Of a DNA stretch of 64,000 nt, positions 13,209 to 63,412 are shown piece by piece (within the stretch, counting starts at the first letter, position 1; every line of letters starts with the position of its first letter). The translations under genes were made by a program, and so were the position numbers. This DNA comes from an uncultured Chloroflexia bacterium (GTDB taxonomy: Bacteria > Chloroflexota > Limnocylindria > Limnocylindrales > CSP1-4): the NCBI GenBank assembly GCA_963744095.1, contig CAVUSH010000006.1:389670-453669 (forward strand). Direction: 5' to 3'. The notes below the pieces were generated by a model. The model made no database searches and was not told the origin of the DNA. It worked only from the letters and a program-made list of their open reading frames with translations.

Positions 13209-13227
13209 TCGAGGACCGCTTGCCGGC

Positions 13228-13680: not shown

Positions 13681-13691
13681 GTGATCAGCAA

Positions 13692-13716
13692 ACCTTGGAG
13701 TGGGTCGGATGTCAAG
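13692..13716 (-). promoter_or_regulatory. MerR-type operator/promoter copy A (immediately upstream of merR)
   Basis: ACCTTGGAGTGGGTCGGATGTCAAG is 22/25 identical to 15658-15682. It contains CTTGACA on the coding strand and overlaps the VOC stop codon. Confidence 0.5.
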
Positions 13717-14559: not shown

Positions 14560-15644
14560 CTCACGACCTCCCTCTGCTCGACGACCGGCAAGGCGCCGGC
14601 GATGACCGTGGCGAGGCGCGCGTATGCGGCCTCCTTGTCGACCCGCATCTGCTCGACCGCATCTGCGTCCGCGGGCGGTCCGCCCTGGCGGGCCCAGCGA
14701 AGCCGGAGCCGGGTGCCGCCGTCGGCCGGATCGAGATCGGCCGTGGACGCGACCGGACCGAGCCCGGGCACCGCGAGTCGCCAGGCGACGTGGTCGTAGG
14801 GCTGCCAGTCGACGATCTCCTCGAGCGTCGCGAGCCGGCCGGTCACGCACTGCGCGGTCGTTCCCACGCCTCGGCGCCCGCCGGCTGACGTCTCCTCGAT
14901 GACGAGCGGCCCTTCCCACAGCATCCGGAGCGCCGGCGACGTCAGATGAGCCCAGACGACCGACGGCTCGGCGGCCAGTGTCGCCTCGATGTCGAACGCC
15001 GCGTCGGTGTCGGCGATGTCGATGCGGCGCTCTCCGCCTTCCGCCTGCCAGCGAGCCTCGAGGTCCAGGGTGAAGGTGGCGACCCGGCCCAGGTGCTCGA
15101 TCAATTCCGCGCCCGACGTGAGCCCCAGGGCGTCTGGGTCGAGACCGAGGGCCTCAACCGCGGCGGAAGTGAAGAGCGCAAAGCCGTTGGCGCGCGCCTC
15201 GGTGGCCCCCGCGCCTTTCAGGAGCCGATGGACGAGGATGACGTCGGGTCCGGCCAGCTCGTCCCGGCCGGCAATGCGGCTGCGGACGAAGGCCCCGTGA
15301 TGGACGAAGAGCTTGAGGTCGAGGCGGGGAGCCAGCCGGCACGAGTTGCAGTCGCAGCTCGTGGCCTGGTCGATGCTCCTCAGCCGGCGCCGGAAGGCGA
15401 TGTAGGACGCCTCGATCGCGTCGACGAGGAGCGACCCGTCGGCCCGCCCGTCCTCGACGAAGAGGAAAGCGGCATCGCCCTCGAGCTTCGCCAGCCTGAA
15501 CGGCGGCTCCAGGCGGCCGACGATCGTCTCGAGGAGGTCGCCCGCGATGGCCGGCGCATGCTCGATCTCGCTCCGCGACAGGTAGGCGGTGTAGCCGGTC
15601 AGATCGGCGATGACGAGGAAGCCGGTCGCAGGGGACGCTGCCAT
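14556..15644 (-). CDS. DUF2652 (cyclase-fold) domain protein fused to an SRPBCC-like C-domain
   Basis: 362-aa ORF. FLVIADLTGYTAYLSRSEIEHA...LAKLEGDAAFLF...CDCNSC...LKLFVHHG. The C-terminal half PSVVWAHLTSPALRMLWEG... is SRPBCC-like. Confidence 0.75.
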   Translation of the reverse strand: MAASPATGFLVIADLTGYTAYLSRSEIEHAPAIAGDLLETIVGRLEPPFRLAKLEGDAAFLFVEDGRADGSLLVDAIEASYIAFRRRLRSIDQATSCDCNSCRLAPRLDLKLFVHHGAFVRSRIAGRDELAGPDVILVHRLLKGAGATEARANGFALFTSAAVEALGLDPDALGLTSGAELIEHLGRVATFTLDLEARWQAEGGERRIDIADTDAAFDIEATLAAEPSVVWAHLTSPALRMLWEGPLVIEETSAGGRRGVGTTAQCVTGRLATLEEIVDWQPYDHVAWRLAVPGLGPVASTADLDPADGGTRLRLRWARQGGPPADADAVEQMRVDKEAAYARLATVIAGALPVVEQREVVR

Positions 15645-18475: not shown

Positions 18476-19171
18476 TCACGCCGGAAGCGCCATCCCTTCG
18501 CCCAGCGTCGGTGAGGCATGTCTTGCGAAGCGGCTCGGCCCGAGCCAGCGCGGGAAGCCGCGCACGAGATCGGCCGAGCCGTCGAGGTGGATGTCGCCCC
18601 TCGCGACGGCATCGGCGAACCGCGCGCGACCGAGCAGCACTTGCCCGAACGCCTTCTCGTCAACGGAGACGACGAGGTCGACCTCGCGCCCGGGGTCGTT
18701 GTAGCAGAGCTCCGGGTCCCCGCCGTCGAGGACGAGCCAGTAGATCTTCGGGTGGCCGGTGAACTCGAAGCGCACCGTGACCCGCCGCCCGGGAAGGCGC
18801 GCCGGATCGAGGAGCGATTGGACCGTCAGCATCAGGTAGGCGGGATCGCAGTCCTCCCGGCGCAGCTCGATCCAGTGCTGGGCCCAGATGCCGAGCTCGT
18901 TGAGGACGGTCTCGAGCTCGCGCCCGGCTGGCGTCGGGTGGTATTCCGAACCGCGTCCGGTCCGATTCGGCCGGCGCTCGATCACCCCGGCCTCCTCGAG
19001 CGTCCGCAGGCGCTGTGAGAGGAGGCTCTGCGAGATCCGCCCGACGTTCCGCTGGATCTCGCTGAAGTGGTGGTTCCCGAAGAGGACGATCTCGCGCAGG
19101 ATCAGCGGCGTCCACCGCTCCGCGATGACTTCGCTGGCGAGGGAGACCGGGCAGATCTGCTGGTAGCGCAC
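18476..19171 (-). CDS. HxlR-family winged-helix transcriptional regulator with extra C-terminal domain
   Basis: Starts at GTG 19171. ICPVSLASEVIAERWTPLILREIVLFGNHHFSEIQRNVGRISQSLLSQRLRTLEEAGVIER. Confidence 0.8.
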   Translation of the reverse strand: MRYQQICPVSLASEVIAERWTPLILREIVLFGNHHFSEIQRNVGRISQSLLSQRLRTLEEAGVIERRPNRTGRGSEYHPTPAGRELETVLNELGIWAQHWIELRREDCDPAYLMLTVQSLLDPARLPGRRVTVRFEFTGHPKIYWLVLDGGDPELCYNDPGREVDLVVSVDEKAFGQVLLGRARFADAVARGDIHLDGSADLVRGFPRWLGPSRFARHASPTLGEGMALPA

Positions 19172-19322
19172 GGCGCCAGTCTCTGCCCGACCCCGGGCGA
19201 CCGCAAGTGCAGAAATTGCACGAGCAACTCCAGTTGCTGCACTTGCCGCTGATGTCGAGGGCAGCCGAGGCTCCGTGTTGATCGTCGTCGTCGACGGCGA
19301 GGCACGGAGAGGAAGCTCGGAC

Positions 19323-19709
19323 ATGCAGCTCATCGTCGGGGTCCTGATGTGGCCGGTCATCAGCCTGCTCATCACCGGCGGACTCCACTTCACCGCCGAG
19401 GCCGTCTGGCCGGACCTGCGGAACACCTTCATCCCGCCCACCCTCGCCCCGCTGCTCCTGGCCTACGGGCTGTGGGTCGGCTATCGCACCGTCGATCGGG
19501 GCGGCACATACCTGCACGCCATCGTGTTCGCGGCGATCCTCGGCATCCTGCCGATCGTCCTCGACGTCGTCGGATTCGGCGTCATCCTCGGGCGCGGGAC
19601 ACAGGCCGGCACGCTCGCCGGCGTCTTCGGCTTCGGGATGATCCTCTTCGGCTCGCTGATCGGCAGCGGCTTCGCGCTCAGCCGCGAGTCGGGATCACCG
19701 TCGCGCTGA
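19323..19709 (+). CDS. hypothetical membrane protein (divergent from hxlR-like gene)
   Basis: MQLIVGVLMWPVISLLITGGL... There are four hydrophobic segments. Confidence 0.6.
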   Translation: MQLIVGVLMWPVISLLITGGLHFTAEAVWPDLRNTFIPPTLAPLLLAYGLWVGYRTVDRGGTYLHAIVFAAILGILPIVLDVVGFGVILGRGTQAGTLAGVFGFGMILFGSLIGSGFALSRESGSPSR

Positions 19710-24293: not shown

Positions 24294-27045
24294 TCAGGCG
24301 GAGGGTCGGCCGGCCCGGGTGCGCGAGAGCAGGCCGAGCTCGGCGGCACGGCGGACGGCTGCCCTCCGGCTGTTCACGCCGAGCTTCGCGTAGATGTTCC
24401 TCGTGTGCGTCCGCACGGTGCTCAAGGACACCACCAGCTCGCGCGCGATGTCCGGGCCATCGAGCTCGCTGCCCAGGAGGCGCAGGACCTCGAGCTCCCG
24501 CTCGCTGAGCGGTTCGATCAGCGGCTGTTCGACAAGCGTTCGTCCCTCGGCGGGCGCGACAGCGGCAAGGAGTCGGCGCACATAGCGCGAGGCGTTCCGC
24601 TGCTTCGCCGCCAGCTTCAGCAGCGCCGCCATGGGCGGTCCTTCGTCGACGACGACGCGGACGTAGCCCTCCGGCTCGGCCATCGCCAGCGCACGATGCA
24701 GCGACGCAAGCGCACCCGGCACATCGTCGTGGGCGCGACGGGCGAGCGTCAGCAGGACCAGGATCTCGATGACGCTCCCGTTTCGACCACCTTCCTCCGC
24801 AGCTGCCAGCAGGCGCTCCAGGAGCTCCGTTGCCTCTCTGGTGGCGCGTGCGGAACGGTCGTGCGCTCCCTCGGCCAGAAGCAACCTGGCCAGCGTGGCG
24901 TGCTCGAGCTCGTGGACGTAGCTGAGCTCGTCGGCAGCGGAGAGACCGCGCTCGCGCGCCCACTCGGAAGCCTCCGCCAGCCTCCCCTGGGCGATCCACA
25001 CGCGTGCCTTCAGGGCAGCGACGGGGCGCACGTCCGGGGAGAAGTCGCCGACGTAGAGACGCTCGGCCTCGGTGAGCAGCTCGAGCGCCCCGTCCAGGTC
25101 GCCCTGTGCCTGCCGGATCGCGGCCAGGGCGACGCGCGACCGATAGCGGTTCTGGGGCAGGCCGTTCTCCTCGCCCAGCGCCCCGGCCTCCGACAGGTGG
25201 CGCCTGGCGCCCTCGAGGTCGTCCCGCTCGCGGAGGATGGTGCTGATCCCGACGTGCATGTCCGCCGCGCCCCGCAGCACATGGCCACCCTGCCCGGTGG
25301 CGAGCGCCAATCCCCGCTCGAAGACGCGCAGCGCCTCGCCCAGGCGACCCTGGGCGAGCCGGATGTCGGCCAGGGCGAGCGCGCAGCCGATGACGTCCGA
25401 GAGGTGACCGGCCTTCTCCAGGCTCGCCATCGCAGCCGCGTACCAACGGGACGCTTCCTCGAGATCCCCGCTCGTCCAGGAGGCGAGCGCCAGGAGCCCG
25501 GCTGCGCCTCCACGGGCAAGGTGCTCGTCCTCGCCGACGAGGTCGAGCGCCCGCCTGGCATGGGCCACGGTGCCGGCCGCATCGCCGAGGATGAGGGCCT
25601 GGCCGGCGCGGTGCACGGCGACCGAGCCCGGCAATCGGCGGAACGCCGCCTCGTCGACGACGACCATGGAGCCCGCACCTTCGCCCGGGCCAACCACGGT
25701 CCCGTCCATCGCGCCGAGCCACCGCTCGGCGTCCCGCAGCCGCTCCTCGACCCCCTCGACCTCGCCCCTGACGAGGAGCGACCCGGCGTACGCGTTGCTC
25801 AGCACGGGCCGGACCCGGAGCAGCTCGTCGGGGAGCGCCTCGAGCCACCGGCGCAGCGTGGCCTCCCGTCGATGCTGGGTCGTCGCCGGGATCGCCAGCT
25901 CCACGAGGTCCGCCGCCCGCTCGAAGTCCTCGGCGGCGATCGCATGGTCGATGGCCTCCGACCGTTCGCCGTTCTCCTCGTACCAGTCGCTCGCCCGCCC
26001 GTGAAGCACCTGGGCGCGGCCGGGCTGCTCGTCCAGGAGGCGCGCTCGCAGCACGTCGGCAAAGAGCTGGTGGTAGCGATACCACCGGCGGCGGTCGTCG
26101 AGCGGGACCAGGAACAGGTTTCCCCGATCGAGCGCCTCCAGCATGGCGTTGCCGCCATCCTCGCCGGTGACGGCATCGCACAGCGGGCCGCTCAGGCGGT
26201 CCAGGACGGAGGTCTGCAGCAGGAAGCTCCGGACGTGATCGGGTTGACGGTGCAGGACCTCTTCGACCAGGTAGTCGACGATGTAGCGGTCGTCCCCGGC
26301 GAAGCCGGCGATGAAGCCCGCGACGTCCTCGCGCCCCTGGATCGAGAGCGCGGCCAGCTGGAGGGCGGCGATCCAGCCCTCGGTGCGCGCCTCCAGGGCG
26401 GCGACATCGCTCGCCGTCAGGGCCAGCCCCATCGCCTCGTTGAGGTACGCGGCGGCCTCGTCCGGGGTGAAGCGCAGGTCGGCGGCGCGGATCTCGACGA
26501 GCTCGCCCCGCGCCCGCAGGCGGGCCAGCGGCAGCGCCGGATCGGCGCGGGTGGTGATCACCAGGTGCAGCCGCGGGGGGAGGTGCTCCAGCAGGAACGC
26601 CATCCCCTCGTGGATGTCGGGCACGTCGACCTCGTGGTAGTCGTCGAGCACCAGCACGACGTCCTGCGGCACCGCGCTGAGCTCGTTGAGCAGCGTCGCA
26701 AGGACCGTCTCGATCGGCGACTGGCCCGAGTCCAGGAGTGGGAGCCCACTCGCGCCGACCCCGGGTGCCACCGACTGCAGCGCGGTGATCAGGTACGTCC
26801 AGAACAACACGGCCTGGTTGTCACCGGGGTCGAGCGAAAGCCACGCCGTGGACCGTTCACCGGCCGGCGCGGCCGCCAGCCACTCGGCCAGCAGCGTCGT
26901 CTTGCCGAAGCCGGCCGGCGCGGAGATGAGCGTCAGCTTCGACTCGGCGCCGCGGTCCGAGGCGTTCGCTCAGTCTCGGACGTGCGACCAGGCCGCGTCG
27001 CAGCCTGGGGACGAAGAGCTTGGTCTCGAGCAGCGGGCTGGCCAT
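24294..27045 (-). CDS. MalT/LuxR-type STAND transcriptional regulator #1 (P-loop NTPase + helical repeats + LuxR HTH), frame broken at ~26957
   Basis: MASPLLETKLFVPRLRRGLVARPRLSERL is followed, after skipping one G, by DRGAESKLTLISAPAGFGKTTLLAEWL, which runs into the 838-aa ORF 24294-26810. The C-terminal LSERELEVLRLLGSELDGPDIARELVVSLSTVRTHTRNIYAKLGV is a LuxR/GerE HTH. Confidence 0.85.
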
Positions 27046-39895: not shown

Positions 39896-42556
39896 ATGGG
39901 TGCTCCGGAGGAGCCGGTCGGCGTTCGCGCTCCTGGCGTCGTCGCACGAAGAGCGCTGTATGCGCGCCTGTCTGCCGGAGCTTCCGCTGGCGTAACGCTC
40001 GTCTCGGCGCCGCCCGGCAGCGGGAAGACCGTGCTGCTTCGCTCGTGGATCGATGAAGCGGGGCTCCGCGCCCGAACAGCCTGGGTGCTGGTCGAGCGCC
40101 ACGAACGCGACGCCCAGCGCTTCTGGCTGTCGGTCGTCGAGCAGCTGCGCTCCGCGGTCGGCGAGGACGGCGTCGTGCAGAAGGTCGCGCCGACCCCGGA
40201 GTTCGACGGCGACGGGCTCGTGCGGCGCCTCATCTCGGACCTCGAGGCGCTCGATGAGCCCGTCGTGCTCGTGATCGACGATCTGCACGAGCTGGTCTCG
40301 CCGGATGCGCAGGCGCAGCTGGAGCTGCTGATTGCGCGACGGCCGCGGTTGCTGTACGTGGTCCTTGCCACACGCCATGACCCCTCCCTGGGACTCCATC
40401 GCCTGCGCCTCGCCGGCGAGCTGACCGAGCTCCGAGCCGCCGACCTCCGGCTCTCGGCGGACGAGGCGCGGCAGCTGCTCGATGCCTCTGCGGTCGAGCT
40501 GTCCGCCGAGGCCGCCGCCGTCCTCCTGGCGCGGACCGAGGGGTGGGCCGCGGGCCTGCGGCTCGCCACGATGTCGCTCGCCGGTCACCCTGACCCCGAG
40601 CGGTTCGTCGCCGAGTTCGCCGGCAGCGAGCGGACCGTGGCGGACTACCTGCTCGCCGAGGTCCTCGAGCGCCAGCCCGAAGGGGTCAGGCAGCTCCTGC
40701 TCCGCACCTCGATCCTCGAGCGGGTCTGCGGCCCGCTCGCGGACCGCCTCACCGGCGCGAGCGGCTCGGAGCGGACGCTCCTCGAGCTGGAGGACTCGAA
40801 CGCGTTCGTCGTCGCGGTCGACCGTGAGCGCTCGTGGTTCCGCTACCACCCGCTGTTCGCGGATCTCCTGCTCCTGGAGCTTCGGCGCAGCGAACCCGAT
40901 GCCATCAGGGATCTGCACCTGGCCGCCGCCGACTGGCTCGCCGAGCATGGGCACGCCGTCGATGCGATCCGCCACGCCCAGGCCGCCGGTGACTGGGAGC
41001 GCGCAGGGCGCGTGCTCGCCGACCATGGTCTCAGCCTCTCCCTCAACGGACACGTCGCGACCATCGGCGCCCTGCTCGCAGCCTTCCCCGCCGATGCGCT
41101 GTCGAATCCGGAGCTGGCCGCGCTCCTCGCCTTCGTCGAGCTGACGCAGCACTCCCTCGGGACGGCGGCCGCGTACATCGCGCTGGCCGAACGACGTGCT
41201 TCGGAGGTCCTCGCCGAACGGCAGCGTCAATTCGCGGTCGTGCTCGCGGTCGTCAGGCTGGAGCTCGCCCGCCGGCGCGGTGATCTCGAGTCGGCGCTCC
41301 GCGAGGTGGGTCCGCTGCTCGAACCCGTCGAGGCGGACTCGATGACCGAGCTGACGCTGGGCAACGACGCGCGGGCGCTCGCGTTGATGAACCTCGGGAT
41401 CGTCGAGCTGTGGTCGTTCAGGCTTGACGACGCCGAGCGACACCTGGAGCAGGGCCTGGCGCTCGCGCGGCTGATCGACAGGCCCTACGTCCAGATCGGC
41501 TGTCTCGCGCATCTCGGGCTCGACGCCGCCCGACACTCGCTCGCGCAGGCACGGCAACGATGCGAGGAGGCGATCGCGATCGCGGAGGCACACGGCTGGG
41601 CGACCGACCCGATCGCCTGCACCGCGTTGGCGATGATGGCCTTGGCCGAGGCGGCGCAGGGCCGATTCGAGGAGGGAAGCCGCTGGCTCGACCGAGCCGA
41701 GCACTCGATCCGGGCAGAGCCTGACCCCGCCACGGCCCTGTTCGTGCACTTCGTGCGCGGCGAGCTGCACGTCGGCGAGGGCCGGTTCGGAGAGGCGCTC
41801 GGCGAATTCCGTGCCGCTGCGCGGCTCCAGGACGTGCTGGCCACCTCGCACGCGCTGACCGGCCCGGCCAGGGTATCGATCGCCCAGACACAGCTGCGGA
41901 TGGGCGACCTGACCGGTGCACGGGCCACGGTCGCCAGCCTGACCGAGCGGGACCACGAGTTCGGTGAGGCGCGGACGGCCCTCGCCGCGATTCGACTCGC
42001 GGAGGGCGATTCCACGGCGGCCGTCGCAGCGCTCGCGCCGGTGCTCGACGGGACGTTGCCGGTCGTCCGCGCCGGGACCGTGGTCCAGGCGCTGCTGCTT
42101 GATGCGGTCGCACGCGACCAGCTCGGCGACCGCGTGACGGCGGAGCGCGACATCGAGCGCGGTCTGGACATCGCCGAACCCGACTCGCTCGTCTTCCCGT
42201 TGGTCGTGGTGCCGGCGCGCGACCTCCTCGAGCGGCATCCCCGGCACCGGACGGCGCACGCCGCCCTGCTGGCCGACCTCCTCAGCGTCCTCGGCGGGTC
42301 GTCGCTCCCGCCCCGTGGCCGCGAGCCCGTGACGCCGTCCGAGCCGCTCAGTGAGAGCGAGCTCCGAGTGCTCCGCTTCCTGCCGAGCAACCTTTCCGCG
42401 GGCGAGATCGCCGGTCAGCTCTACGTGTCGACGAGCACCGTCAAGACCCACATGCGCCACATCTACGAGAAGCTGGACGCGCATCGGCGCACCGAGGCTG
42501 TGGATCGCGCGCGGGACCTGGGGCTGCTCGGACCATCGGCGCGATCGGGTCGCTAG
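39896..42556 (+). CDS. MalT/LuxR-type STAND transcriptional regulator #3 (intact, 886 aa)
   Basis: Walker A VTLVSAPPGSGKTVLLRSW. LVIDDLHEL, TEGWAAGLRLA and long helical repeats follow. The C-terminal LSESELRVLRFLPSNLSAGEIAGQLYVSTSTVKTHMRHIYEKLDA is a LuxR HTH. Confidence 0.9.
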   Translation: MGAPEEPVGVRAPGVVARRALYARLSAGASAGVTLVSAPPGSGKTVLLRSWIDEAGLRARTAWVLVERHERDAQRFWLSVVEQLRSAVGEDGVVQKVAPTPEFDGDGLVRRLISDLEALDEPVVLVIDDLHELVSPDAQAQLELLIARRPRLLYVVLATRHDPSLGLHRLRLAGELTELRAADLRLSADEARQLLDASAVELSAEAAAVLLARTEGWAAGLRLATMSLAGHPDPERFVAEFAGSERTVADYLLAEVLERQPEGVRQLLLRTSILERVCGPLADRLTGASGSERTLLELEDSNAFVVAVDRERSWFRYHPLFADLLLLELRRSEPDAIRDLHLAAADWLAEHGHAVDAIRHAQAAGDWERAGRVLADHGLSLSLNGHVATIGALLAAFPADALSNPELAALLAFVELTQHSLGTAAAYIALAERRASEVLAERQRQFAVVLAVVRLELARRRGDLESALREVGPLLEPVEADSMTELTLGNDARALALMNLGIVELWSFRLDDAERHLEQGLALARLIDRPYVQIGCLAHLGLDAARHSLAQARQRCEEAIAIAEAHGWATDPIACTALAMMALAEAAQGRFEEGSRWLDRAEHSIRAEPDPATALFVHFVRGELHVGEGRFGEALGEFRAAARLQDVLATSHALTGPARVSIAQTQLRMGDLTGARATVASLTERDHEFGEARTALAAIRLAEGDSTAAVAALAPVLDGTLPVVRAGTVVQALLLDAVARDQLGDRVTAERDIERGLDIAEPDSLVFPLVVVPARDLLERHPRHRTAHAALLADLLSVLGGSSLPPRGREPVTPSEPLSESELRVLRFLPSNLSAGEIAGQLYVSTSTVKTHMRHIYEKLDAHRRTEAVDRARDLGLLGPSARSGR

Positions 42557-54969: not shown

Positions 54970-56234
54970 TCAGGCGAGCCCGCGGCCCTTCTCGAGGACG
55001 ACCTGGAGGTCCTGGGTCACGCCCGTCGCGAAGCTCGCCTCGCTGATCGCCAGGTAGTAGTCCCACATCCGGATGAACTCCTCGTCGAAGCCCATCGCCC
55101 GGACCGTGTCGAGCCGTTCGAGGAAGCGCGCCCGCCAGGCCCGGAGCGTCCGGACGTAGTGCGGGGCGATGTCCTCGACGTCCCGGATGAGCAGGCGCGT
55201 TCGATGGGTCGACCGTTCAATGACCGCCAGGGACGGCAGGAGGCCGCCCGGGAAGATGTAGGTCTGGATCCAGTTGGCGCGACGGCGCTGCGGCTCGTAG
55301 GCGACGTCCGGGAAAGTGATCGTCTGGAGGCTCATCCGGCCACCCGGACGGAGCGCCCGGTCGCACGCTTCGAAGAAGGCGGAGTAGAACTCCGCCCCCA
55401 CGGCCTCCAGCATCTCGATCGAGACGATCGCGTCGTACGTGCCCCGGATGTCGCGGTAGTCGCGCAGCTCGACGCTGACGCGCTCTGCGAGGCCCGCGTC
55501 ACGGACCCGCTCGGTCGCCAGCGCATGCTGGGCCTGCGAGATCGTGATCGTGGTCACGCGGCAGCCCAGCTCGCCGGCGGCGTAGAGGGCGAAGCCGCCC
55601 CAGCCGGTGCCGATCTCCAGGACGTGCTCGCCGCCGCGCAGGCCCGCCCGTTCGGCGATGACCGCGTACTTGGTGCGCTGGGCATCGGCCAGCGACTGCC
55701 CGGGCGTGGCGAAGACGGCGCTCGAATACGTCATCGACTCGTCCAGGAAGAGCCGGTAGAAGTCGTTGCCCAGGTCGTAGTGGGCGGCGATGTTGCGCCG
55801 GCTCTGCCCGACCGTGTTCCGGCGAGCGCGGTGGGCCATCGTCCGCTGGATCCGCACGGGGAGGCGCCACCACCCGCCCGAAAGGGCGAGCGCGTCGCGG
55901 TTGAGCGCCGCCACCCGGAACAGGGCCGGCAGGTCGGGGCTCGACCAGAGGCCGTCCATGTAGGCCTCGCCCGCACCGATGTCGCCGGCCAGCAGGAGGC
56001 GGGCCACGGCCGTCGTGTCGTGGATGTGCATCTGCGCCGCCTGGTCGGAGGCGCGTCGCCGAAGACCCGGCGCGAGCCGTCGGGCAGGACGATCGTCAGG
56101 CGTCCGACGTGGATCCGCCGCGCGGCGCTGAGCATGACCCGCCGGGCGACGCGCTCGACGAAGCGATCGACCAGGCGATCGGCGCGCGAGCCCCGGCGCG
56201 CTCCGGACCGCCTCGCCGCGGCGCCTTCGCTCAT
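54970..56234 (-). CDS. cyclopropane-fatty-acyl-phospholipid synthase (Cfa)-family SAM-dependent methyltransferase, frame broken at ~56050 (behaves as a 1-nt deletion)
   Basis: MSEGAAARR...RIHVGRLTIVLPDGSRRVFGDA is followed, after the shift, by SDQAAQMHIHDTTAVARLLLAGDIGAGEAYMDGLW...HYDLGNDFYRLFLD...VLEIGTGWGGFALYAA... Confidence 0.85.
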
Positions 56235-56971
56235 CGCGCCATCTGGCTGCGCCGGAAGAGCTCCGTGCCCCGCGTCCAGAGGCGCAGGGCGTGCCACAGG
56301 ATCAAGCCCATCGTCCGGTGGGAGAGCAGCGGGTGGCGCAGCAGCATCCGGGCCAGCGTCCGATCGGTCAGCCGCTTTCGGCGCAGGACCAGGCTCGCGC
56401 TGAGCACCTGCTCCTGGCCCTGCCGCTCGTCGATGGCGATGCGCACGCCATCGTGATCGTCGCGGACGTGCACCGTGTACCGGCCCTCCATCCCGATGAA
56501 CGGTGACACGAAGAACGCCTTCTCCATCGAGCCCACGAAGCGATCCCCCTCCCTCTCGGGGTGGAGCGTGTACAGGTGCCGCTCGCCGAAGGTGTTGTGG
56601 ACCTCCACGATCACGACCCGGAGGATGCCACGCGCGTCGCGGCAGAGGAAGAAGCTCGCCGGGTTGAAGACGTACCCGAGGACCCGCAGGCTCGTGATCA
56701 GCGTCACGCGCCAACCCTCGGGATCCAGGCCCTCCGAACGAAGGTGCGCCCGGACGTCGACGTCGATGTCGCGGGACGGGACCACCAGGTGGTCCTCGTC
56801 CCGGAACGTCACGACGTTCGCCCGGTTGCGGCTCACCAGGCGCAGCCGGCCGATGACGTCGTCGAGCTCGGCGAGGTCCAGGGCGAAGTAGAAGACGTCA
56901 TGCTCGAGCTCGTAGACTCGAGGGCGCGCCCGGCGATGGCGGACCTTGCCCTCGAGGAGATGCGACCTCAT
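56231..56971 (-). CDS. DUF1365 domain-containing protein
   Basis: [33 protein letters not shown]...[13 protein letters not shown]...[15 protein letters not shown] overlaps sit at both ends. Confidence 0.85.
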
Positions 56972-58297
56972 GCAGCGCGCTCCGCGTCGCCCGCGTCGGC
57001 GTCGGCGTAGGCCGTGTCACCGTCGGCTTCGGCGTCCGCCCGCCCGGCCGCCATCAGCATCTCGGCGACCTCGAAGCCCGAGCGGCAGCCGTCCTCGTGG
57101 AAACCGTACCCGAGGTGTGCGCCGGCGTACCAGGTCCGCAGGTGGCCCTGCAGGTCGCGGATCCCCACCTGGGCGTCGAGCGTCCTGAACGTGTACATCG
57201 GGTGGCTGAAGGCGCGCTCGACGATCACGTGCTCCGGGCTGATCGCCTCGCCGGGGTTGAGCGAGACGCAGTACTGGACTGGGCCGGGGAGCGACTGCAG
57301 GCGGTTCATGTGGTACGTCATCGTGAGGGCGTCGCCGGGGAGCCGGCAGTCCGCGGTACGCACGTTCCACGAGGCCCGGGCGTGCGGGCTGGCCGGCAGG
57401 ATGCTCTCGTCCGTGTGCAGGACGACATGGTTCATCGAGTACTCGAAGCCGCCCAGCACGTCGCGCTCGCCCGCGTCCGCGTCGGCCAGGAGGCGGAGGG
57501 TGTCGTCGGCATGGGTCGCCATGACGACGGCGTCGAATCGCTCCGAGCGGCCGCCGGCTGTCCGGACGGTGACCCCGCGGGAATCGCGGAGGACACCGGC
57601 CACCGGATCGCCGGTCCGCACCGAGCCCGCGGGCAGGGCCTCGACGATCCGGGCCACGTATTCCCGCGACCCGCCGCGGATCACGCGCCACTGCGGCGCG
57701 TTGCCGTAGCCGATCAGCCCATGGTTGTCGAGGAAGTGGAGGAGGTAGTCGACGGGGAACTCCAGGGCCCGATCCGCCCCGGTCGACCAGACGGCCGAGG
57801 TGATCGGGACCAGGAAGTGCTCCCGGACGCCGCGCCCGTAGCGGTGCTCGTCCATCCAGCCGCCGAGGGTCGCCCGGGTGCGCTCCGGCGCGTCCAGCGT
57901 CTGTCGGGCGTCGCGGTAGAAGCCGGGCGATGTCGGCGAGCATCCGCAGGTGGGTCGGCCGGCCGAGCAGCGAGGCATTCGGGAAGATGCCGCGGGCGCC
58001 GCGCGAGCTGAAGCTGATCCGGCAGGCGTCGCAGGCCGAGCCGAGCGACATGTCGCTCGGTTGCGTGGCGACCCCGAGCTCGGCAAGGAGCCCGACGAAG
58101 CGCGGGTAGGTGCGCTCGTTGTAGACGATGAACCCGGTGTCGACCGGTACCGGTCCGGCGTCCGTCTCCACGGTCACGGTCTTCACGTGGCCGCCGGCGA
58201 CGGGATCCTGCTCGAAGAGGGTGACCCGGTGGTCCCGGCGCAGCGCGTAGGCGGCGGTGAGCCCGCTGACGCCCGCTCCGACGATCGCGATCTTCAT
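56968..58297 (-). CDS. NAD(P)/FAD-dependent oxidoreductase (amine-oxidase/desaturase-like), frame broken at ~57922
   Basis: [41 protein letters not shown]...[11 protein letters not shown] is followed, after a +1 shift, by [29 protein letters not shown]...[13 protein letters not shown]...[13 protein letters not shown]. Confidence 0.85.
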
Positions 58298-58755
58298 CGG
58301 TCCGTCCCTCGGCGCGTCGCGGCGCGCTCGTCGAGCGCGCGCTGCATGCCGTCGCGCGCCTGGCGGGCGACTTTCGCGAAGGCGCCGCCGGCGAAGGGAG
58401 CCACCAACCGCTTCACGCCGCGGAGCCGGATGTCCGCCGTGTAGTCGATCCGGGTGCCCTCCGGCGTCGCCTCGAACCGGATGTCGTCGACGGCCGAGAG
58501 ACCGGAGCCCTCGCCGGCCAGCACGACGCGGCGCAGCGGCTCGAGGGCCGTGACGCGGTACTCCATGCTCGCGACGCCGCCGCCCATCCGCACGCCGAGG
58601 CGATAGCGCGCCCCGATGGCGACGGGCCCCGGGTCGAGCCGCTCAGAGGTGGCGACGCCGGGGTCCCAGTCCTTCGTGTTCGCGAAATCGGCGACGAAGG
58701 CGAACGCCTCGTCGAGGGGCAGGGGAGTCTCGATGCGCTCGTTCAGCGTGGTCAT
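58294..58755 (-). CDS. SRPBCC family protein (first gene of the lipid-modification operon)
   Basis: [34 protein letters not shown]... The stop overlaps the oxidoreductase start (ATGA). Confidence 0.8.
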
Positions 58756-58791
58756 GTTGCATCCTGTACAGAGTTCGTATAAGGTATGCGA

Positions 58792-58834
58792 AGCCTACGG
58801 CCACGCAGGCGGTCGTGTCAAGTGTTCGTACAAT
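58792..58834. promoter_or_regulatory. back-to-back promoters of the SRPBCC operon (minus) and the heliorhodopsin operon (plus)
   Basis: Minus strand: TTGACA (58821-58816), an 18-nt spacer and TAGGCT (58797-58792). Plus strand: TACAAT at 58829-58834, 28 nt before the heliorhodopsin ATG. The region is locally AT-rich. Confidence 0.5.
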
Positions 58835-58862
58835 GTTGTGAAGAGCAGAGGGAGAGCGGGAG

Positions 58863-59750
58863 ATGACGCACGTCGAGGCCACTGGAGCCGACCCGGCGCA
58901 GCTGGGGGCAGCCGCCCGCTCAGCCACGCCCGCGAACCACGCCGCGCCGGCGGCGATCGATCTGGCGGCGATCGATCCCGCGCGTGCGCGCGGACTTCAC
59001 CGCTGGAACGTGGTGCTCGCGGGTCTCCACGCGGTGCAGGGCCTGGCGATCCTGGCAATCTCGTTCGCGAAGAGCCCGGTCGTCTCCGCGCCGGTGGTGA
59101 GCAGCTATCTCACCTTCGACACCGCGACGAGCACCCTCGTCCCCGCCCAGCGCGCGCTCTTCGACCTCCCGATCGGGCCCGCCGTCGCGCTCTTCTTCTT
59201 CCTCAGTGCGATCGCCCACTTCGCCGTCGCGTTCCCGGCGCGCCGCTGGTACGAACGCAGCCTCGCGCGCGGCCAGAACCCGGCCCGCTGGATCGAGTAC
59301 GCCCTCTCGTCGAGCGTGATGATCGTCGTCATCGCGACGCTGTCGGGGATCCAGGAGGTCGGGACGCTCGTCGCGATCTTCGGCATCAACGCGGCGATGA
59401 ACCTCTTCGGCTGGAGCATGGAGGCCGCGAACGAGGGCCGGACGCGCGTCCAGTGGCTCCACTACGTCTTCGGGTGCATCGCCGGTGCCGTCCCGTGGAT
59501 CGTCATCACGATCGCGCTCTGGACCGCCGCGACCGCGCCCGGCGCCGCGCCCATCCCCGGCTTCGTGATCGCGATCTTCGTCTCGCTCTTCATCAGCTTC
59601 AACGTCTTCGCGATCAACATGGTCCTGCAGTACCGGAAGACGGGTCGCTGGGCCGACTACCTCTACGGCGAGCGCGCGTACATGCTCTTCAGCCTCGTGG
59701 CAAAGACCCTCCTCGCCTGGCAGGTCTTCGCCGGTACCCTGCGGCCGTAG
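58863..59750 (+). CDS. heliorhodopsin
   Basis: 295-aa 7-TM ORF. NPARWIEYALSSSVMIVVIA, FGINAAMNLFGW, FGCIAGAVPW and GERAYMLFSLVAKTLLAWQVFAGTLRP closely parallel the remembered HeR 48C12 segments RWVEYSLSSSVMIVLIA, FGCIAGIVPW and GERAYIVLSLVAKSALAWQIFSGTLIP. Both the counter-ion Glu and the Schiff-base Lys are present. Confidence 0.9.
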   Translation: MTHVEATGADPAQLGAAARSATPANHAAPAAIDLAAIDPARARGLHRWNVVLAGLHAVQGLAILAISFAKSPVVSAPVVSSYLTFDTATSTLVPAQRALFDLPIGPAVALFFFLSAIAHFAVAFPARRWYERSLARGQNPARWIEYALSSSVMIVVIATLSGIQEVGTLVAIFGINAAMNLFGWSMEAANEGRTRVQWLHYVFGCIAGAVPWIVITIALWTAATAPGAAPIPGFVIAIFVSLFISFNVFAINMVLQYRKTGRWADYLYGERAYMLFSLVAKTLLAWQVFAGTLRP

Positions 59751-59751
59751 C

Positions 59752-60747
59752 GTGGATCTTCGACCGCTGATCGATGCCGGCCTCGAGATCTCGGTCGTCG
59801 GCAGCTTCACCCGGATCGGGCCCGCGGTCCGGCGGCGGCTCTTCGGCTGGTCGCCAGCGCCCGCTGGCGCGCTGGCCGGCCGGACCGTGCTCGTCACCGG
59901 GCCGACGTCCGGGCTCGGCCGGGCCGCGACCCACGTGCTCGCCGGCCTCGGGGCGCGGGTGGTCCTCGTGGGACGCAGCCAGGAGCGGCTGGCACGCCTC
60001 CGCGACGAGCTGATCCGGGTCCACGGCGAGGATCGCTTTCCCGTGGTCGTCGCCGACATGGGCTCGCTCGCCTCGGTGCGGGCCGCGGTCGCCCGTGTTC
60101 TCGCGACGGAGCCGCGCCTCGACGTCCTGGTCGACAACGCCGGGGCGATCTACCCGGAGCGGATCGAGGGGCCGGACGGGATCGAAGCGACCCTGGCCGT
60201 CCTCGTGGTCGGCCCCTTCGCGCTGGTCGCCGGGCTGCAGCCGCTCCTGGGCCGGACGGCCGGCTCGCGCGTGATCGCCGTGACGTCGGGTGGCATGTAC
60301 ACGCAGCGCCTCGACCTCGACGACCTGCAGTGCCGCGTTGGCGGCTTCTCCGGCGCCCGCGCCTACGCCCGGGCGAAGCGGGCCCAGGTCGCGCTCGTGC
60401 GGGAGTGGGCGCGCCGCCTCGCCGGCATGTGCGTTCCGGCGTCCGGCGTTGCGTTCACGGCGATGCACCCGGGGTGGGCTGACACACCGGGCCTCGCGGA
60501 GTCCCTGCCGGGCTTCCACCGGCTGATGCGCCCCCTCCTCCGCACGGCCGCGGAAGGCGCCGACACGATCGCCTGGCTCGCCACCCATCCCGACCCCGCG
60601 TCGACGAGCGGTCGGCTCTACCTGGATCGCCGGCCGCGCCCGTTCGACCGCGCCCCGGCGACGCGGCTCTCGGCGCACGATCGCCGGCGGCTCTGGGACG
60701 AGGTGGTGGAGCTGAGCGGGGAGCCGGATCCGACACCCGCCGGCTGA
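59752..60747 (+). CDS. SDR-family oxidoreductase (RDH/DHRS12-like subgroup)
   Basis: The GTG start lies 1 nt after the heliorhodopsin stop. GRTVLVTGPTSGLGRA...LVDNAGAI...VTSGGMY...YARAKRAQVAL...MHPGWADTPGL. Confidence 0.85.
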   Translation: MDLRPLIDAGLEISVVGSFTRIGPAVRRRLFGWSPAPAGALAGRTVLVTGPTSGLGRAATHVLAGLGARVVLVGRSQERLARLRDELIRVHGEDRFPVVVADMGSLASVRAAVARVLATEPRLDVLVDNAGAIYPERIEGPDGIEATLAVLVVGPFALVAGLQPLLGRTAGSRVIAVTSGGMYTQRLDLDDLQCRVGGFSGARAYARAKRAQVALVREWARRLAGMCVPASGVAFTAMHPGWADTPGLAESLPGFHRLMRPLLRTAAEGADTIAWLATHPDPASTSGRLYLDRRPRPFDRAPATRLSAHDRRRLWDEVVELSGEPDPTPAG

Positions 60748-60825
60748 CGCGACGCTGGTCGTTCGCCACGCCTGGCGGTCGAGCGCGTTTCACCCGGCTC
60801 GATCAGCGCCCGTGAGGCCGCTGCC

Positions 60826-61030
60826 GGGGCGAGTGCCCCTGTCGCGGATCAGCCGCGCCGACTCACCGCCGCGGCGATGGCCGCCGCGGCCGGGGCGAGT
60901 GCCCCCGTCGCGGATCAGCCCGCGCCGACTCACCGCCGCGGCGATGGCCGCCGCGGCCGGGGCGAGTGCCCCCGTCGCGGATCAGCCCGCGCCGACTCAC
61001 CGCCGCGGCGATGGCCGCCGCGGCCGGGGC
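60826..61030. repeat. tandem repeat, 3 copies of a 66-67-bp unit, abutting the litR-like stop codon
   Basis: GGGGC unit starts fall at 60826, 60892, 60959 and 61026. The unit is GGGGCGAGTGCCCC(C)GTCGCGGATCAGCC(C)GCGCCGACTCACCGCCGCGGCGATGGCCGCCGCGGCC. Confidence 0.9.
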
Positions 61031-61978
61031 TCAGCGGCGCCGGCTCACGACCTCTGCGACAGCCGCCGCCGCGGCCACCACGTGGTCGGGCAGCACCAGA
61101 ATCCTGCCGCCCGGGGCAAGCTCCGGCCCGGCGGCGGCGCCCCCGACGGCGATGATCGGGACCGCCTGCGCCTGGAGCGCCGCGACCACGGCAGCCGCGG
61201 CCTCGCGGTCGGCCACAACGACCACCCCGATGACCGCGGCGCGCGCGCGCGACTTCCTGAAGACGTCGACCCAGCCCTCGACCGTCACGTCGGGCCCGAG
61301 GTAGAGCACGCCGACGCCGCGACGGCGGAGCGCGGCGGCGAAGGCCAGGGCTCCGAGCTCGTGGCGCGCACCGGGCGGCAGCCCGACGACGACGGACGGG
61401 CGGGTCGGGATCCCGGCGGCCTGGTAGATCGCGGCGAGGCGCCGACCGGCGGCGGCACTCGCGGCGTGCTCGGCCGCCACGCTGAGCGTGCCCGCCGCCC
61501 ACGCGTCGCCGAGGGCCGCGGCTGCGGGAAGGAGAATGTCGTCGACGACCGCCTCGAACGATCCCGCGGCGAGGATGGCATCGAGGGCCGCCTCGGTGTC
61601 GGCGGGCGACGCGGATTCCGCGGCGGAGACGAACCGGTCGATCAGCCGGGCCCGATGGACGGCCGCCCCGGACGCCCCGGCGGGTTCGGCAGGCTGCGGG
61701 CCCGCGAGCGCGCCCGCGCGTCGGTCCGGAGGCGGCGCGACCACCCGGTCCTCGACGGCCACCTCGCCCGCCGAGATCGCGCGCGCTGCTTCCGACGCCG
61801 TCCAGCCAGATTCGACGAGCGCCCGCATCGTGAGCAGGACCCCGATCGTCGCGTCGTCGTAGAGCCGGTATCCGGCGGCCGTGCGGGTCGGCTTGACCAC
61901 GCCGTAGCGCCGCTCCCAGGCCCGGATGAGGGGAGCGCCAACGCCTGAGCGTGTCGAGGCTTCCTTGATGGTGTACAT
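61031..61978 (-). CDS. MerR-family regulator with C-terminal cobalamin-binding domain (CarH/LitR-type light-responsive regulator)
   Basis: The N-terminal MerR HTH is MYTIKEASTRSGVGAPLIRAWERRYGVVKPTRTAAGYRLY. The helical-bundle motif W-x9-EH (DAWAAGTLSVAAEHA) is present. The Rossmann B12 motif RHELG (xHxxG) is followed by GVGVLYLGPDV. Confidence 0.8.
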   Translation of the reverse strand: MYTIKEASTRSGVGAPLIRAWERRYGVVKPTRTAAGYRLYDDATIGVLLTMRALVESGWTASEAARAISAGEVAVEDRVVAPPPDRRAGALAGPQPAEPAGASGAAVHRARLIDRFVSAAESASPADTEAALDAILAAGSFEAVVDDILLPAAAALGDAWAAGTLSVAAEHAASAAAGRRLAAIYQAAGIPTRPSVVVGLPPGARHELGALAFAAALRRRGVGVLYLGPDVTVEGWVDVFRKSRARAAVIGVVVVADREAAAAVVAALQAQAVPIIAVGGAAAGPELAPGGRILVLPDHVVAAAAAVAEVVSRRR

Positions 61979-62066
61979 GGTATGTCCAACCCTAGCACGA
62001 GATCAACCCTCCGCACAACGGGGAGGCTGGTCATCGCGTGACACCAGGGATGCGCCGCCGCCGAAT

Positions 62067-62212
62067 GCCCGGCACGTCACCATGCCGGCTGGCTGCCCGG
62101 CACGTCACCATGCCGGCCGGCTGGCTGCCCGGCACGTCACCATGCCGGCCTGGCTGCCCGGCACGTCACCATGCCGGCTGGCTGCCCGGCACGTCACCAT
62201 GCCGGCCGGCTG
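62067..62212. repeat. tandem repeat, 5 copies of a 28-32-bp unit between the XRE-like gene and litR
   Basis: The core GCCCGGCACGTCACCATGCCGG starts at 62067, 62095, 62127, 62156 and 62184. Copy 5 encodes the last codons and the TGA of the gene at 62194-62991. Confidence 0.9.
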
Positions 62213-62991
62213 CCGGCGGCGGAACGGGGTCCCGTCACGCTCGGCGGCCGTCGCCAGGCGAACACGCGCGTCGTGGCCACGTCGCACCAGACGAGGCCGG
62301 TACCCCGGGGCGCCGGAGCCCCCGAGACGAGGGCGCGCACCCATCCGGCCGACGAGCCCGGGAAGCGCGCAGCGAACACCTCCGGGTAGCGGGCGACGAG
62401 TGCCCGGTTCCTGGCCGTCGCCCGCACGAGCCAGACCAGGCCGACGTCACCTGCCGTGTCGCCCCAGCGAGCCGTCGCGAGGGCCTCGGCCTCCGCCCGC
62501 TTCCTGTCGCTGGATCGCGCTGAAGCGCCGACGTCGCCGATCGTGTTCCAGCATTCGACGAGAAGAAGCCGCCGCCTGGCAGGATCCTCCAGCCCGACGT
62601 CGGATGATCGCCACGGCTCACTCGGCCTCGTTGCGAGCTCGAAGCTCAGCCCGTACCCGGCCACCCGGCCAAGCCGAAGCACGAGCTCCTGCATTCCCAG
62701 GTGAGGCGCGTCGCTGGTCTCACCGGCGACGTTCCGCTGGAGCACTACCACGAGTGGCCGGTCCACGGCCAGTCCGATCCGCTGCCACGCGTCCAGCGTC
62801 AACCCGGCGCCGTGACCGCGTTCGGCGCGGCTGATCGACTGGCGGGCAAGCCCCACACGCGCGCCGAGCTGCTGCTGCGTGAGGCGCTTCGCAACGCGCC
62901 CCGCCCTGACCTCGCCCCCGAGACGGGCGCATTGCTCCCTGGCGCGGCGCTCGGCTTCGACCGAGAGGCTGGTGCGGATCCGGGTCGGCAT
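62194..62991 (-). CDS. XRE-family HTH protein with uncharacterised ~170-aa C-terminal domain
   Basis: Starts at MPTRIRTSL. The HTH is RVAKRLTQQQLGARVGLARQSISRAERG. The C-domain ...FELATRPSEPWRSSDVGLEDPARRRLLLVECWNTIGDVGA... could not be assigned to a family. Confidence 0.65.
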   Translation of the reverse strand: MPTRIRTSLSVEAERRAREQCARLGGEVRAGRVAKRLTQQQLGARVGLARQSISRAERGHGAGLTLDAWQRIGLAVDRPLVVVLQRNVAGETSDAPHLGMQELVLRLGRVAGYGLSFELATRPSEPWRSSDVGLEDPARRRLLLVECWNTIGDVGASARSSDRKRAEAEALATARWGDTAGDVGLVWLVRATARNRALVARYPEVFAARFPGSSAGWVRALVSGAPAPRGTGLVWCDVATTRVFAWRRPPSVTGPRSAAGSRPAW

Positions 62992-63254
62992 GACCGCTCC
63001 ATGATCATCTCCGGCACTTGCCTGCGCCGTATCCGGGCTGGCGGTGACGGCGTCCTCCCCCGGGCCTGCCCGCGCCGGCACGCACGGCACGCGGGGCACG
63101 ATTGGACGTTCACATGCTCGTGGAGCGGGCACGGGGCGGCACAAGCCCCTGGCCTCGGAGGCAGGGGGCGGCGCAAGCCACTGGCCGTGGAGCCAGGGGG
63201 CGCCGATACCCTGGATCTGCTCATGGAGCGGTCACGGCGAAACACAGCCGGCGC

Positions 63255-63412
63255 GGGCCCCCAGCCGCCGGGCCGCGCGGGCCGCCAGCCGCCGGGCCGC
63301 GCGGGCCGCCCACCGCCGCGGGCCGCCAGCCGCCGTGGGCCGCCAGCCGCGGGCTGCCAGCCGCCGCCGGCCGCCAGCCGCCAGCCCGCGGGCCGCCAGC
63401 CCCCGGGCCGCG
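63255..63412. repeat. degenerate GC-rich short tandem repeats (GGGCCGCCAGCCGCC-like, ~8 units)
   Basis: Read directly from the sequence. The array is intergenic, between the XRE-like gene and the ABC ATPase gene. Confidence 0.6.

Follow-up and report, generated by a model that had tools for sequence, protein, structure and literature searches.

A predicted class I LitR/CarH-type photoreceptor-repressor with candidate operators at a heliorhodopsin gene and a furan-fatty-acid-type operon in an uncultured Chloroflexota-like clade

The carH/litR-like gene located on the minus strand of a 64-kb stretch of DNA (the window; 72% G+C) from an uncultured Chloroflexia bacterium very probably encodes a class I LitR/CarH-type photoreceptor-repressor, which would repress three promoters in the dark and release them in the light. 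Computation shows that the encoded protein shares its domain order, fold, and motif and interface residues with CarH, and that direct repeats are present at the three promoters. The conservation of these sites suggests that in the light the regulator switches on itself, a heliorhodopsin, and a lipid operon related to photo-oxidative stress. Its product is an unremarkable representative of CarH/LitR, a known family of light sensors based on vitamin B12. The gene and the parts of its product are as follows, with Thermus thermophilus CarH (TtCarH) as the reference and pLDDT denoting the predicted local distance difference test score.

61031-61978, minus strand: carH/litR-like gene for a protein of 315 aa, predicted class I LitR/CarH type (open reading frame, codon bias, Pfam, match to TtCarH, AlphaFold2 model and Foldseek)
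61763-61978, minus strand: MerR-type winged-helix DNA-binding domain, residues 1-72 (Pfam MerR_1 at residues 2-69; aligned with residues 11-83 of the TtCarH DNA-binding domain)
61670-61762, minus strand: Ala/Pro-rich flexible linker, residues 73-103 (modeled without secondary structure, pLDDT 53-79)
61418-61669, minus strand: four-helix bundle, residues 104-187, with GxxW and W-x9-EH (Pfam B12-binding_2; model helices)
61466-61501, minus strand: W-x9-EH codons, W160 to H171 (alignment with TtCarH W131/E141/H142; 120 of 120 homologues)
61034-61402, minus strand: Rossmann-type B12-binding subdomain, residues 193-315 (Pfam B12-binding at residues 196-287; H206 codon at 61361-61363)

The open reading frame opens at the first possible start codon, and its codon bias is coding-like, as in other genes of the window (G+C content 0.90 at third and 0.59 at second codon positions). 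The original prediction, made from the sequence alone, described a MerR helix-turn-helix domain, a helical bundle, and a Rossmann-type B12-binding domain in this order, and both the Pfam domains and the modeled fold agree with it. The scores of MerR_1 (residues 2-69, E-value 3.7e-14), MerR (E-value 2.7e-8), and B12-binding_2 (residues 113-184, E-value 8.7e-9, 35.9 bits against a cut-off of 23 bits) exceed the Pfam cut-offs, and the B12-binding domain is found at a sub-threshold score. The top NCBIfam model is the CarH equivalog NF052513 TransRegCarH; since its score of 137.7 bits is below the curated cut-off of 400 bits, the protein is related to the seed proteins of this model rather than equivalent to them.

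The identification as a CarH/LitR-type regulator is borne out by both sequence and structure, as well as by the conserved interface residues and operator-like repeats considered below. The top HMMER matches among the PDB chains are TtCarH (3whp/5c8d, E-value ~2e-35). The AlphaFold2 model built from 46 homologues has a mean pLDDT of 90.7, with helices 4-11, 15-25, 42-56, and 61-69 in the DNA-binding domain and helices 104-121, 125-136, 141-161, and 167-187 in the bundle; the linker, variable and gapped among homologues, is its only disordered part. In the Foldseek comparison with the PDB all top matches are TtCarH (full length, E-value 1e-16), and the B12 domain superimposes on the cobalamin-binding domain of TtCarH with a TM-score of 0.85 and a root-mean-square deviation of 2.4-2.7 Å. 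An exact-protein lookup returned no record of the protein encoded in the window.

Residues 158-172 (DAWAAGTLSVAAEHA) contain W160, followed by nine residues and E170-H171; RHELG holds H206, and GVGVLYLGPD corresponds to residues 221-230, just as these elements had been read before. The original prediction had named alignment to Thermus CarH as the place where its reading could fail. In the HMMER alignment with the PDB chains, W160, E170, and H171 coincide with TtCarH W131, E141, and H142 (segment 'gdaWaagtlsvaaEHaas' on 'geaWhrgeigvaeEHlas'), and H206 of RHELG coincides with His177 of RHEIG ('ppgarHelga' on 'ppgerHeiga'). The lower-ligand motif proposed earlier, His-x-x-Gly, stands as far as this histidine is concerned, but the acidic residue ahead of it is replaced by Ala, and the motif here is AxHxxG rather than the classic E/DxHxxG. 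In TtCarH, R176-D201 is the head-to-tail dimer contact and G160/G192 the dimer-dimer contact (PMC10442372); in the alignment these residues are conserved as R205/D230 and G189/G221, respectively.

The four residues W160, E170, H171, and H206 are invariant in all of the 120 closest homologues, that is, the best 120 of the 2,645 proteins that match at E<1e-5 in a word-indexed search, a lower bound. In the classic B12 motif, ExHx2Gx41SxV/Tx22-27GG (PMC8156234), the positions of H206, G209, V253, and G279-G280 are kept with spacings x41 and x25, and G279-G280 is invariant in the homologue alignments of the Rossmann subdomain. The SignatureFinder signature of light response consists of GxxW, EH, GxxH, and GxxxP (PMC11796333), of which G157xxW160, E170H171, and G203xxH206 are present here. 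For a wider comparison, the best 131 full-length representatives of 50% clusters, down to ~35% identity, were aligned, with the following states at the key positions.

W160 (TtCarH W131): Trp in 126 of 131 representatives
E170-H171 (TtCarH E141-H142): present in 128 of 131
H206 (TtCarH H177): His in 128 of 131
A161 (TtCarH His132): mostly Ala, Glu, or Ser; His is outside the seven commonest residues
A204 (TtCarH Glu175): Ser in 51, Ala in 44, and Glu in 5 of 131
G251 (TtCarH Ser222): Gly in 51, Ala in 43, and Ser in 21 of 131
T232 (TtCarH Pro203): Pro in 126 and Thr in 4 of 131

An interpretation of A161, A204, and G251 as novelties of the clade was rejected, since they represent the majority state among the representatives. 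These departures from the classic motif are common in the wider set and hence are traits of a large subfamily rather than of this gene. Judging from the same alignments, Thr232 is the sole substitution specific to the immediate clade.

CarH homologues are defined in the field by W-x9-EH together with the His-containing B12 motif (PMC8156234), and LitR proteins of classes II-V lack the Rossmann B12-binding subdomain in the scheme from which the term class I LitR is taken (PMC9758184). Assignment to class I LitR/CarH is based on W-x9-EH, the His-containing B12 motif, the fold, and the operator type. Because W-x9-EH is present and invariant, the protein is not of the CarA type, and because the Rossmann subdomain with H206 is present, it does not belong to LitR classes II-V.

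The family is large. When 1.84 billion cluster representatives were searched exhaustively with HMMER, 9,181 matched at E<=1e-3, of which 172 reached E<=1e-30. The 120 best homologues are 64-80% identical to the protein, nearly all metagenomic, and share its Pfam architecture; a few have the source labels 'MerR family transcriptional regulator, light-induced transcriptional regulator', Chloroflexota, or Candidatus Limnocylindrales. The closest genomic relatives, 63-68% identical, come from metagenome-assembled genomes (MAGs) whose deposited name is 'uncultured Chloroflexia bacterium'. Relatives at the greater distance of 45-50% identity include Nocardioidaceae and Ornithinibacter MAGs. The high G+C content might point to an actinobacterial origin, but this was rejected, as the labelled relatives are Chloroflexota, 'Chloroflexia', or Limnocylindrales MAGs and Actinobacteria appear only as distant relatives (45-47% identity); going by these labels, the source is probably a Limnocylindria-like member of Chloroflexota. 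A near-identical sequence is found in metagenome runs from bog, wetland, freshwater sediment, and soil.

To describe the candidate operators we compared intergenic regions of the window and 16 related loci (L001-L016). Nine of them (L001-L004 and L012-L016) are orthologous, and L005-L011 are more distant and have other gene neighbours. A recurring 22-bp element consists of two 11-bp direct repeats, AnnTTnKACRn followed by AnnMTnKACRn; the core of the repeats, T-n-K-A-C-R, resembles the TtCarH repeat. The core pattern TTNKACRNANNNTNKACR is built on the window and L001-L004; the 64 kb contain three exact matches to it, all at predicted promoters.

61971-61992, minus strand: operator-like site Pc, GGGTTGGACAT followed by ACCATGTACAC, exact match, reaching from just past the -10 element of the carH-like gene into its start codon
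58815-58836, minus strand: operator-like site O1, ACATTGTACGA followed by ACACTTGACAC, exact match, conserved in L001, L004, L012, L013, L015, and L016
58764-58785, minus strand: operator-like site O2, ACCTTATACGA followed by ACTCTGTACAG, exact match, conserved in all nine orthologous loci

With up to one mismatch allowed, 0.36 matches are expected in the window, compared to the three exact matches and a single additional match observed. This additional match (7625-7642, one mismatch) is intragenic and within the chance expectation, and it was rejected as a sign of further regulon members in the window. In the related loci, matches with at most one mismatch occur at the three corresponding positions, compared to 0.32 matches in total in shuffled L001-L004. 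As only the window and L001-L004 had gone into the pattern, the remaining loci, L005-L016, constitute an independent test, and 11 of these 12 carry a match at the regulator's start or just upstream of it. Overall, a match lies at or just upstream of this start in 15 of the 16 related loci, with L011 alone lacking it. In L005-L010 the matches cluster within ~90 nt upstream of the regulator start, and several lie on the opposite strand in DNA that is purely non-coding.

In the distant group, carH-like genes ~48% identical to that of the window are divergent to DUF4397 genes in L006, L008, L009, and L011 (~7094-7995, minus strand), and in L005 (7628-7894, minus strand) the divergent neighbour is a DUF378 gene. 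The direct-repeat motif is located in the shared intergenic region of these distant carH-like/DUF4397 or DUF378 pairs, which suggests that the distant group may have a second, different set of light-regulated targets. As the motif accompanies the regulator into unrelated contexts, it is predicted to be the regulator's own site. A similar arrangement is known for the characterized proteins: the TtCarH operator overlaps the promoter and comprises three 11-bp repeats nAnnTnnACAn in tandem, and that of Bacillus megaterium CarH (BmCarH) comprises four (PMC8156234). What the sites described above have in common with the TtCarH repeat is the period of 11 bp and the TnnACA core.

The predicted promoter of the carH-like gene is supported by its sequence and its conservation across loci.

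61989-62018, minus strand: promoter of the carH-like gene, with -35 TTGTGC at 62018-62013, TG at 61997-61996, and -10 TAGGGT at 61994-61989

The spacer is 18 nt, and 10 nt separate the -10 element from the ATG at 61978. A TAnnnT hexamer stands 10 nt ahead of the start codon in 10 of 10 orthologous loci, in the versions TAGGGT, TAGCGT, TAACGT, TATGGT, TAGCCT, TACGGT, and TAACAT; the extended -10 element TGn is missing from only one of the ten loci, and most have a -35 element resembling TTGnnC 17-18 nt upstream. This constant offset, together with the invariance of the W/E/H/H residues in homologues, lifts the observation above chance. The 10 nt ahead of the ATG contain no purine-rich Shine-Dalgarno sequence. 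The original prediction of a leaderless promoter was exact in its coordinates and is reinforced by the offset in the ten loci, but strict leaderlessness has to be softened, as a leader of 3-4 nt is possible. At the usual distance from the -10 element to the transcription start the leader would be ~0-4 nt, and 'leaderless or nearly so' seems a fair description of the predicted mRNA; given the 10 nt between the -10 element and the ATG, we prefer the wording 'leaderless or 3-4 nt leader, no Shine-Dalgarno'. A GTG start codon, as in the L016 orthologue, is less usual in a strictly leaderless mRNA.

The other two sites, O1 and O2, are located in the 107-bp region between two divergent transcription units that form the remainder of the predicted regulon. 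These include a short-chain dehydrogenase (SDR) and a flavin adenine dinucleotide (FAD)-dependent protein.

58863-59750, plus strand: heliorhodopsin gene, predicted regulon member (Pfam PF18761, E-value 1e-94; heliorhodopsin TaHeR, PDB 6is6, E-value 4e-63)
59752-60747, plus strand: SDR gene, predicted regulon member, starting 2 nt past the heliorhodopsin stop (Pfam adh_short)
54970-58755, minus strand: SRPBCC/UfaD/UfaO/UfaM-like operon, predicted regulon member (Pfam; synteny in L001-L004 and L012-L016)
58294-58755, minus strand: SRPBCC protein (Pfam)
56968-58297, minus strand: FAD amine-oxidase-type protein, UfaD-like (Pfam)
56231-56971, minus strand: DUF1365 protein, UfaO-like (Pfam)
54970-56031, minus strand: CMAS-family methylase, UfaM-like (Pfam)

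O1 overlaps the -35 element TTGACA (58821-58816) of the SRPBCC operon promoter, and O2 lies between its -10 element TAGGCT (58797-58792) and the SRPBCC start at 58755. On the opposite strand O1 contains TACAAT (58829-58834), 29 nt upstream of the heliorhodopsin ATG; this hexamer or a close variant is present inside O1 in approximately five of the eight heliorhodopsin-containing loci (the window and seven orthologues), and comparison of these loci revealed no good -35 element for a heliorhodopsin promoter.

The heliorhodopsin is intact, and its Schiff-base lysine in SLVAK aligns with that of TaHeR (6is6). The heliorhodopsin-SDR pair is downstream of the carH-like gene and convergent with it, and the SRPBCC operon is divergent from heliorhodopsin. 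The gene order carH-like / SDR / (heliorhodopsin) / SRPBCC-UfaD-UfaO-UfaM-like is observed in all nine orthologous loci. The pair is kept in most of them, and heliorhodopsin is found in seven, counting L013, where the gene at this position encodes 271 aa and has no Pfam match on record; it is absent from L015 and L016, and in L015 the SDR gene stays. The L015 locus contains a DNA photolyase gene (12917-14107, plus strand) after the CMAS-type methylase, and L013 has a 60-aa photolyase fragment (14613-14795, plus strand) at the same position as the L015 photolyase; both support the theme of light damage for this operon. In Rhodobacter, UfaD, UfaO, and UfaM make furan fatty acids, lipids that act as scavengers of singlet oxygen; work on the ufaD/ufaO operon (RSP1091-1087) used a chrR-deletion background, from which control by the singlet-oxygen stress system is implied (PMC7380195). 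The resemblance of the neighbour genes to UfaD, UfaO, and UfaM was established at the level of family membership.

The reading frame of the amine-oxidase gene at 56968-58297 is broken at ~57920, the gene continuing in a second frame. In two metagenome runs, near-identical short-read contigs are one base shorter at 57920/57923, which would restore the frame; based on these contigs, a real pseudogene was rejected as the likeliest reading, and the frameshift is probably an assembly error. Comparable frame breaks occur in several genes of L003 and L004.

Combining these observations with what is known for TtCarH and BmCarH, we propose the following mechanism. In the dark, adenosylcobalamin would be bound base-off/His-on via H206, with W160, E170, and H171 capping the adenosyl group. 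Head-to-tail dimers (R205-D230) would assemble into a tetramer (G189/G221), whose DNA-binding domains would occupy the direct repeats at Pc, O1, and O2 and occlude RNA polymerase, O1 by covering the -35 element and O2 and Pc from just downstream of the -10 element. O1 and O2 would flank the core promoter of the SRPBCC operon; since together with the 29-bp gap between them they fill most of the 107-bp divergent region, a heliorhodopsin promoter located there would also be occluded. Ultraviolet, blue, or green light would break the Co-C bond, and the oligomer would loosen or fall apart. His132, the neighbour of the motif Trp, turns into the upper axial ligand in the light state of TtCarH; with Ala161 in its place, the light state here cannot be bis-His and would have to be stabilized in another way, perhaps by a water or hydroxo ligand as in CtMerR or in TtCarH H132A. 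The three transcription units would be derepressed in the light, and the expected output is more regulator, heliorhodopsin with its SDR partner, and furan-fatty-acid-type enzymes acting against singlet oxygen.

Several observations weigh against this scheme. The Pfam B12-binding match at residues 196-287 scores 27 bits, under the cut-off of 32.1 bits, and the classic B12 motif is only partly present, with Ala204 for Glu and Gly251 for Ser. The fourth SignatureFinder element reads GxxxT instead of GxxxP (G228-P-D-V-T232), if GxxxP corresponds to G199-P203 of TtCarH, which is our own reading, as PMC11796333 gives the element without TtCarH coordinates. The protein naturally has Ala at the His132 position, like the TtCarH variant H132A, which is reported to remain largely a tetramer once illuminated (PMC10442372). 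Only two repeats are clear at each site, compared to three in TtCarH and four in BmCarH, and the match to nAnnTnnACAn is limited to its TnnACA part. Pc runs into the conserved codons Met-Tyr-Thr with its second half, so that its first half alone is unconstrained by coding. A generic scan of 58600-62300 for sigma-70 consensus promoters and terminators called nothing, so that support for the promoter is comparative and comes from conservation across loci. Finally, the runs carrying the sequence of the region are DNA metagenomes only.

The most serious rival explanation retains binding of B12 and DNA but assumes that light alters the oligomer in a manner different from TtCarH, perhaps converting a tetramer to a dimer as in BmCarH or leaving the protein oligomeric with a changed affinity for DNA; given that a bis-His light state is impossible, release might also require oxygen or an additional factor. 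We consider it a possible, if rather less probable, account. Not only does TtCarH H132A stay mostly tetrameric after illumination (PMC10442372), but none of the 120 nearest homologues has His in the A161 column; CtMerR, with Arg at the His132 position, has no bis-His state (PMC11796333), and BmCarH yields dimers in the light (PMC8156234). However, a changed oligomeric response is a variation within the family mechanism rather than a different function, and residues other than His occupy this position in most of the subfamily, where variation is documented (PMC11796333). A regulator insensitive to light, either independent of B12 like Myxococcus xanthus CarA or reporting the availability of cobalamin, is unlikely. 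The sub-threshold B12-binding domain would fit it, as would the missing acidic residue and Ser of the His-Asp-Ser-type B12 motif (A204 and G251), binding of B12 being a prediction here. However, CarA lacks W-x9-EH, which largely explains its B12 independence (PMC8156234), whereas this motif and the lower-ligand His are invariant in the present group, and the neighbours are related to light: heliorhodopsin, the L015 photolyase, and the singlet-oxygen lipid cluster.

The majority of MerR-family proteins are activators, and the spacer of the regulator's own promoter is long, 18 nt, as might be expected if the protein were a light-dependent activator that distorts the promoter in the classic MerR manner. 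We regard this as very unlikely, as the sites are direct repeats, not a palindrome, and they lie over the -35 element (O1) or past the -10 element (O2 and Pc), outside the -35/-10 spacer where MerR activators bind. Both the position and the type of the repeats fit occlusion as in TtCarH and BmCarH (PMC8156234). The TnKACR motif is assigned to the carH-like protein by position and resemblance only, and it could in principle be a site for some other factor, such as an XRE regulator or an alternative sigma factor, with the carH-like gene being a mere neighbour. This is the least probable of the explanations: the motif follows the carH-like gene into L005-L011, where the neighbours are DUF4397 or DUF378; a tblastn search with the window's XRE protein detected no XRE homologue in L005-L011, which counts against the XRE variant; and in its 11-bp periodicity and TnnACA core the motif agrees with the TtCarH half-site (PMC8156234).

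The predicted light-released repressor most closely resembles TtCarH (LitR; PDB 5C8D, 5C8E, 5C8F, and 3WHP), with the same domain order and fold at 30-34% identity. Residues W131/E141/H142/H177, R176/D201, and G160/G192 are conserved, and the 11-bp repeats, the TnnACA core, and the promoter overlap are alike (PMC8156234, PMC10442372). The differences are His132 to Ala161, Glu175 to Ala204, Ser222 to Gly251, and Pro203 to Thr232, the longer Ala/Pro-rich linker between the domains, two clear repeats rather than three, and neighbour targets that comprise heliorhodopsin-SDR and the UfaD/UfaO/UfaM-like operon instead of crt genes. Thus, the regulon predicted from the sites departs from the textbook carotenoid-gene targets, consisting of heliorhodopsin-SDR and the furan-fatty-acid-type cluster. 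Streptomyces LitR and B. megaterium LitR/CarH are similar by description, being autoregulated MerR-type photosensors based on adenosyl-B12 in non-phototrophic Gram-positive/monoderm bacteria (PMC9758184, PMC11519972, PMC8156234); the Streptomyces system acts via a partner extracytoplasmic function (ECF) sigma factor, LitS. CtMerR from the SignatureFinder study is also a light-responsive protein with CarH-like MerR and cobalamin-binding domains that has no His132 equivalent and no bis-His state (PMC11796333), but it has Arg rather than Ala at this position. PDB 8jbs, which may be CtMerR, matches our protein only distantly in sequence (E-value 2e-6).

Similarity at the level of output genes is observed for the class II LitR proteins of Pseudomonas (PplR/PmlR) and for the sigmaE-ChrR system of Rhodobacter (PMC9758184, PMC7380195). 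Genes induced there by light or singlet oxygen encode an SDR, an FAD-dependent oxidoreductase, an UfaM-type methylase, a DUF1365 protein, and a photolyase (PMC9758184, PMC7380195). The sensors are different: in class II LitR the Rossmann B12 domain is missing and a LOV protein is required, and the Rhodobacter sensor is an ECF sigma/anti-sigma pair. A survey of heliorhodopsin neighbours listed 'MerR family transcriptional regulator' and 'SDR' among ten groups, and the MerR regulator was not identified as a B12 photoreceptor (PMC11109279). No paper naming both heliorhodopsin and CarH was found in the searchable library; as this library has gaps, the result amounts to no more than absence of evidence.

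Other features of the window are mentioned for completeness. Upstream of the carH-like gene is the following neighbour.

62194-63144, minus strand: XRE-type gene

A 5.1-copy tandem array of a 28-bp unit (62066-62214, 91% matches) lies between the stop of this gene and the carH-like promoter. The unit folds into an 8-bp G+C hairpin (z = -3.2), and neither the rest of the window nor the orthologous loci contain the array. It was rejected as an operator, given that its period is no multiple of 11, its units are G+C hairpins, and the orthologous loci lack it; it may be a terminator, an insulator, or a local expansion. Dense G+C-rich repeats with periods of 7, 14, 17, 24, and 32 bp are located at 63245-63411 and 63128-63202, upstream of the XRE-type gene. 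On the other side of the carH-like gene, a 3.2-copy array of a 67-bp G+C-rich unit (60817-61030, 97% matches) begins ~70 nt past the SDR stop (60747) and reaches the carH-like stop. Full-length copies occur only here in the window, and the fold of a single unit is not significantly more stable than that of shuffled sequences (z = -1.8).

Elsewhere, large MalT/LuxR-type regulators with TPR_MalT and GerE domains are encoded at 24294-26810 (minus strand) and 39896-42556 (plus strand), the latter also with the AAA_16 and AAA_22 ATPase domains; these genes, as well as those for a Fic-domain protein (8044-9216, minus strand) and an HxlR-type regulator (18476-19441, minus strand), are unrelated to the finding. 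An open reading frame at 1499-2569 (plus strand) matches the C-terminal half only of the URO-D family model. The URO-D family also includes corrinoid-dependent methyltransferases.

The protein itself is one more CarH/LitR homologue among thousands, some already labelled as light-induced regulators, and as a gene it is of modest interest. The role of His132 in disassembly of the tetramer is debated (PMC10442372), and a clade with natural Ala at this position provides a test case for this role and a possible optogenetic part. The conserved operators amount to a concrete regulon prediction, outside carotenogenesis, for a B12 photoreceptor in an uncultured lineage. The function of heliorhodopsin is still largely open, and here its light induction is predicted beside UfaD/UfaO/UfaM-like genes, with a photolyase in one locus; induction together with singlet-oxygen genes would fit the photo-oxidative-stress hypothesis (PMC8612252). 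That a B12 photoreceptor directly gates heliorhodopsin, SDR, and a furan-fatty-acid-type singlet-oxygen operon in an uncultured Chloroflexota-like clade of wetlands, bogs, and sediments is plausible, with the balance standing about level. If true, heliorhodopsin would belong to a defined photo-oxidative-stress regulon induced by light, and the arrangement would constitute a two-tier light circuit, in which a B12-based photoreceptor stands over a second, retinal-based one.

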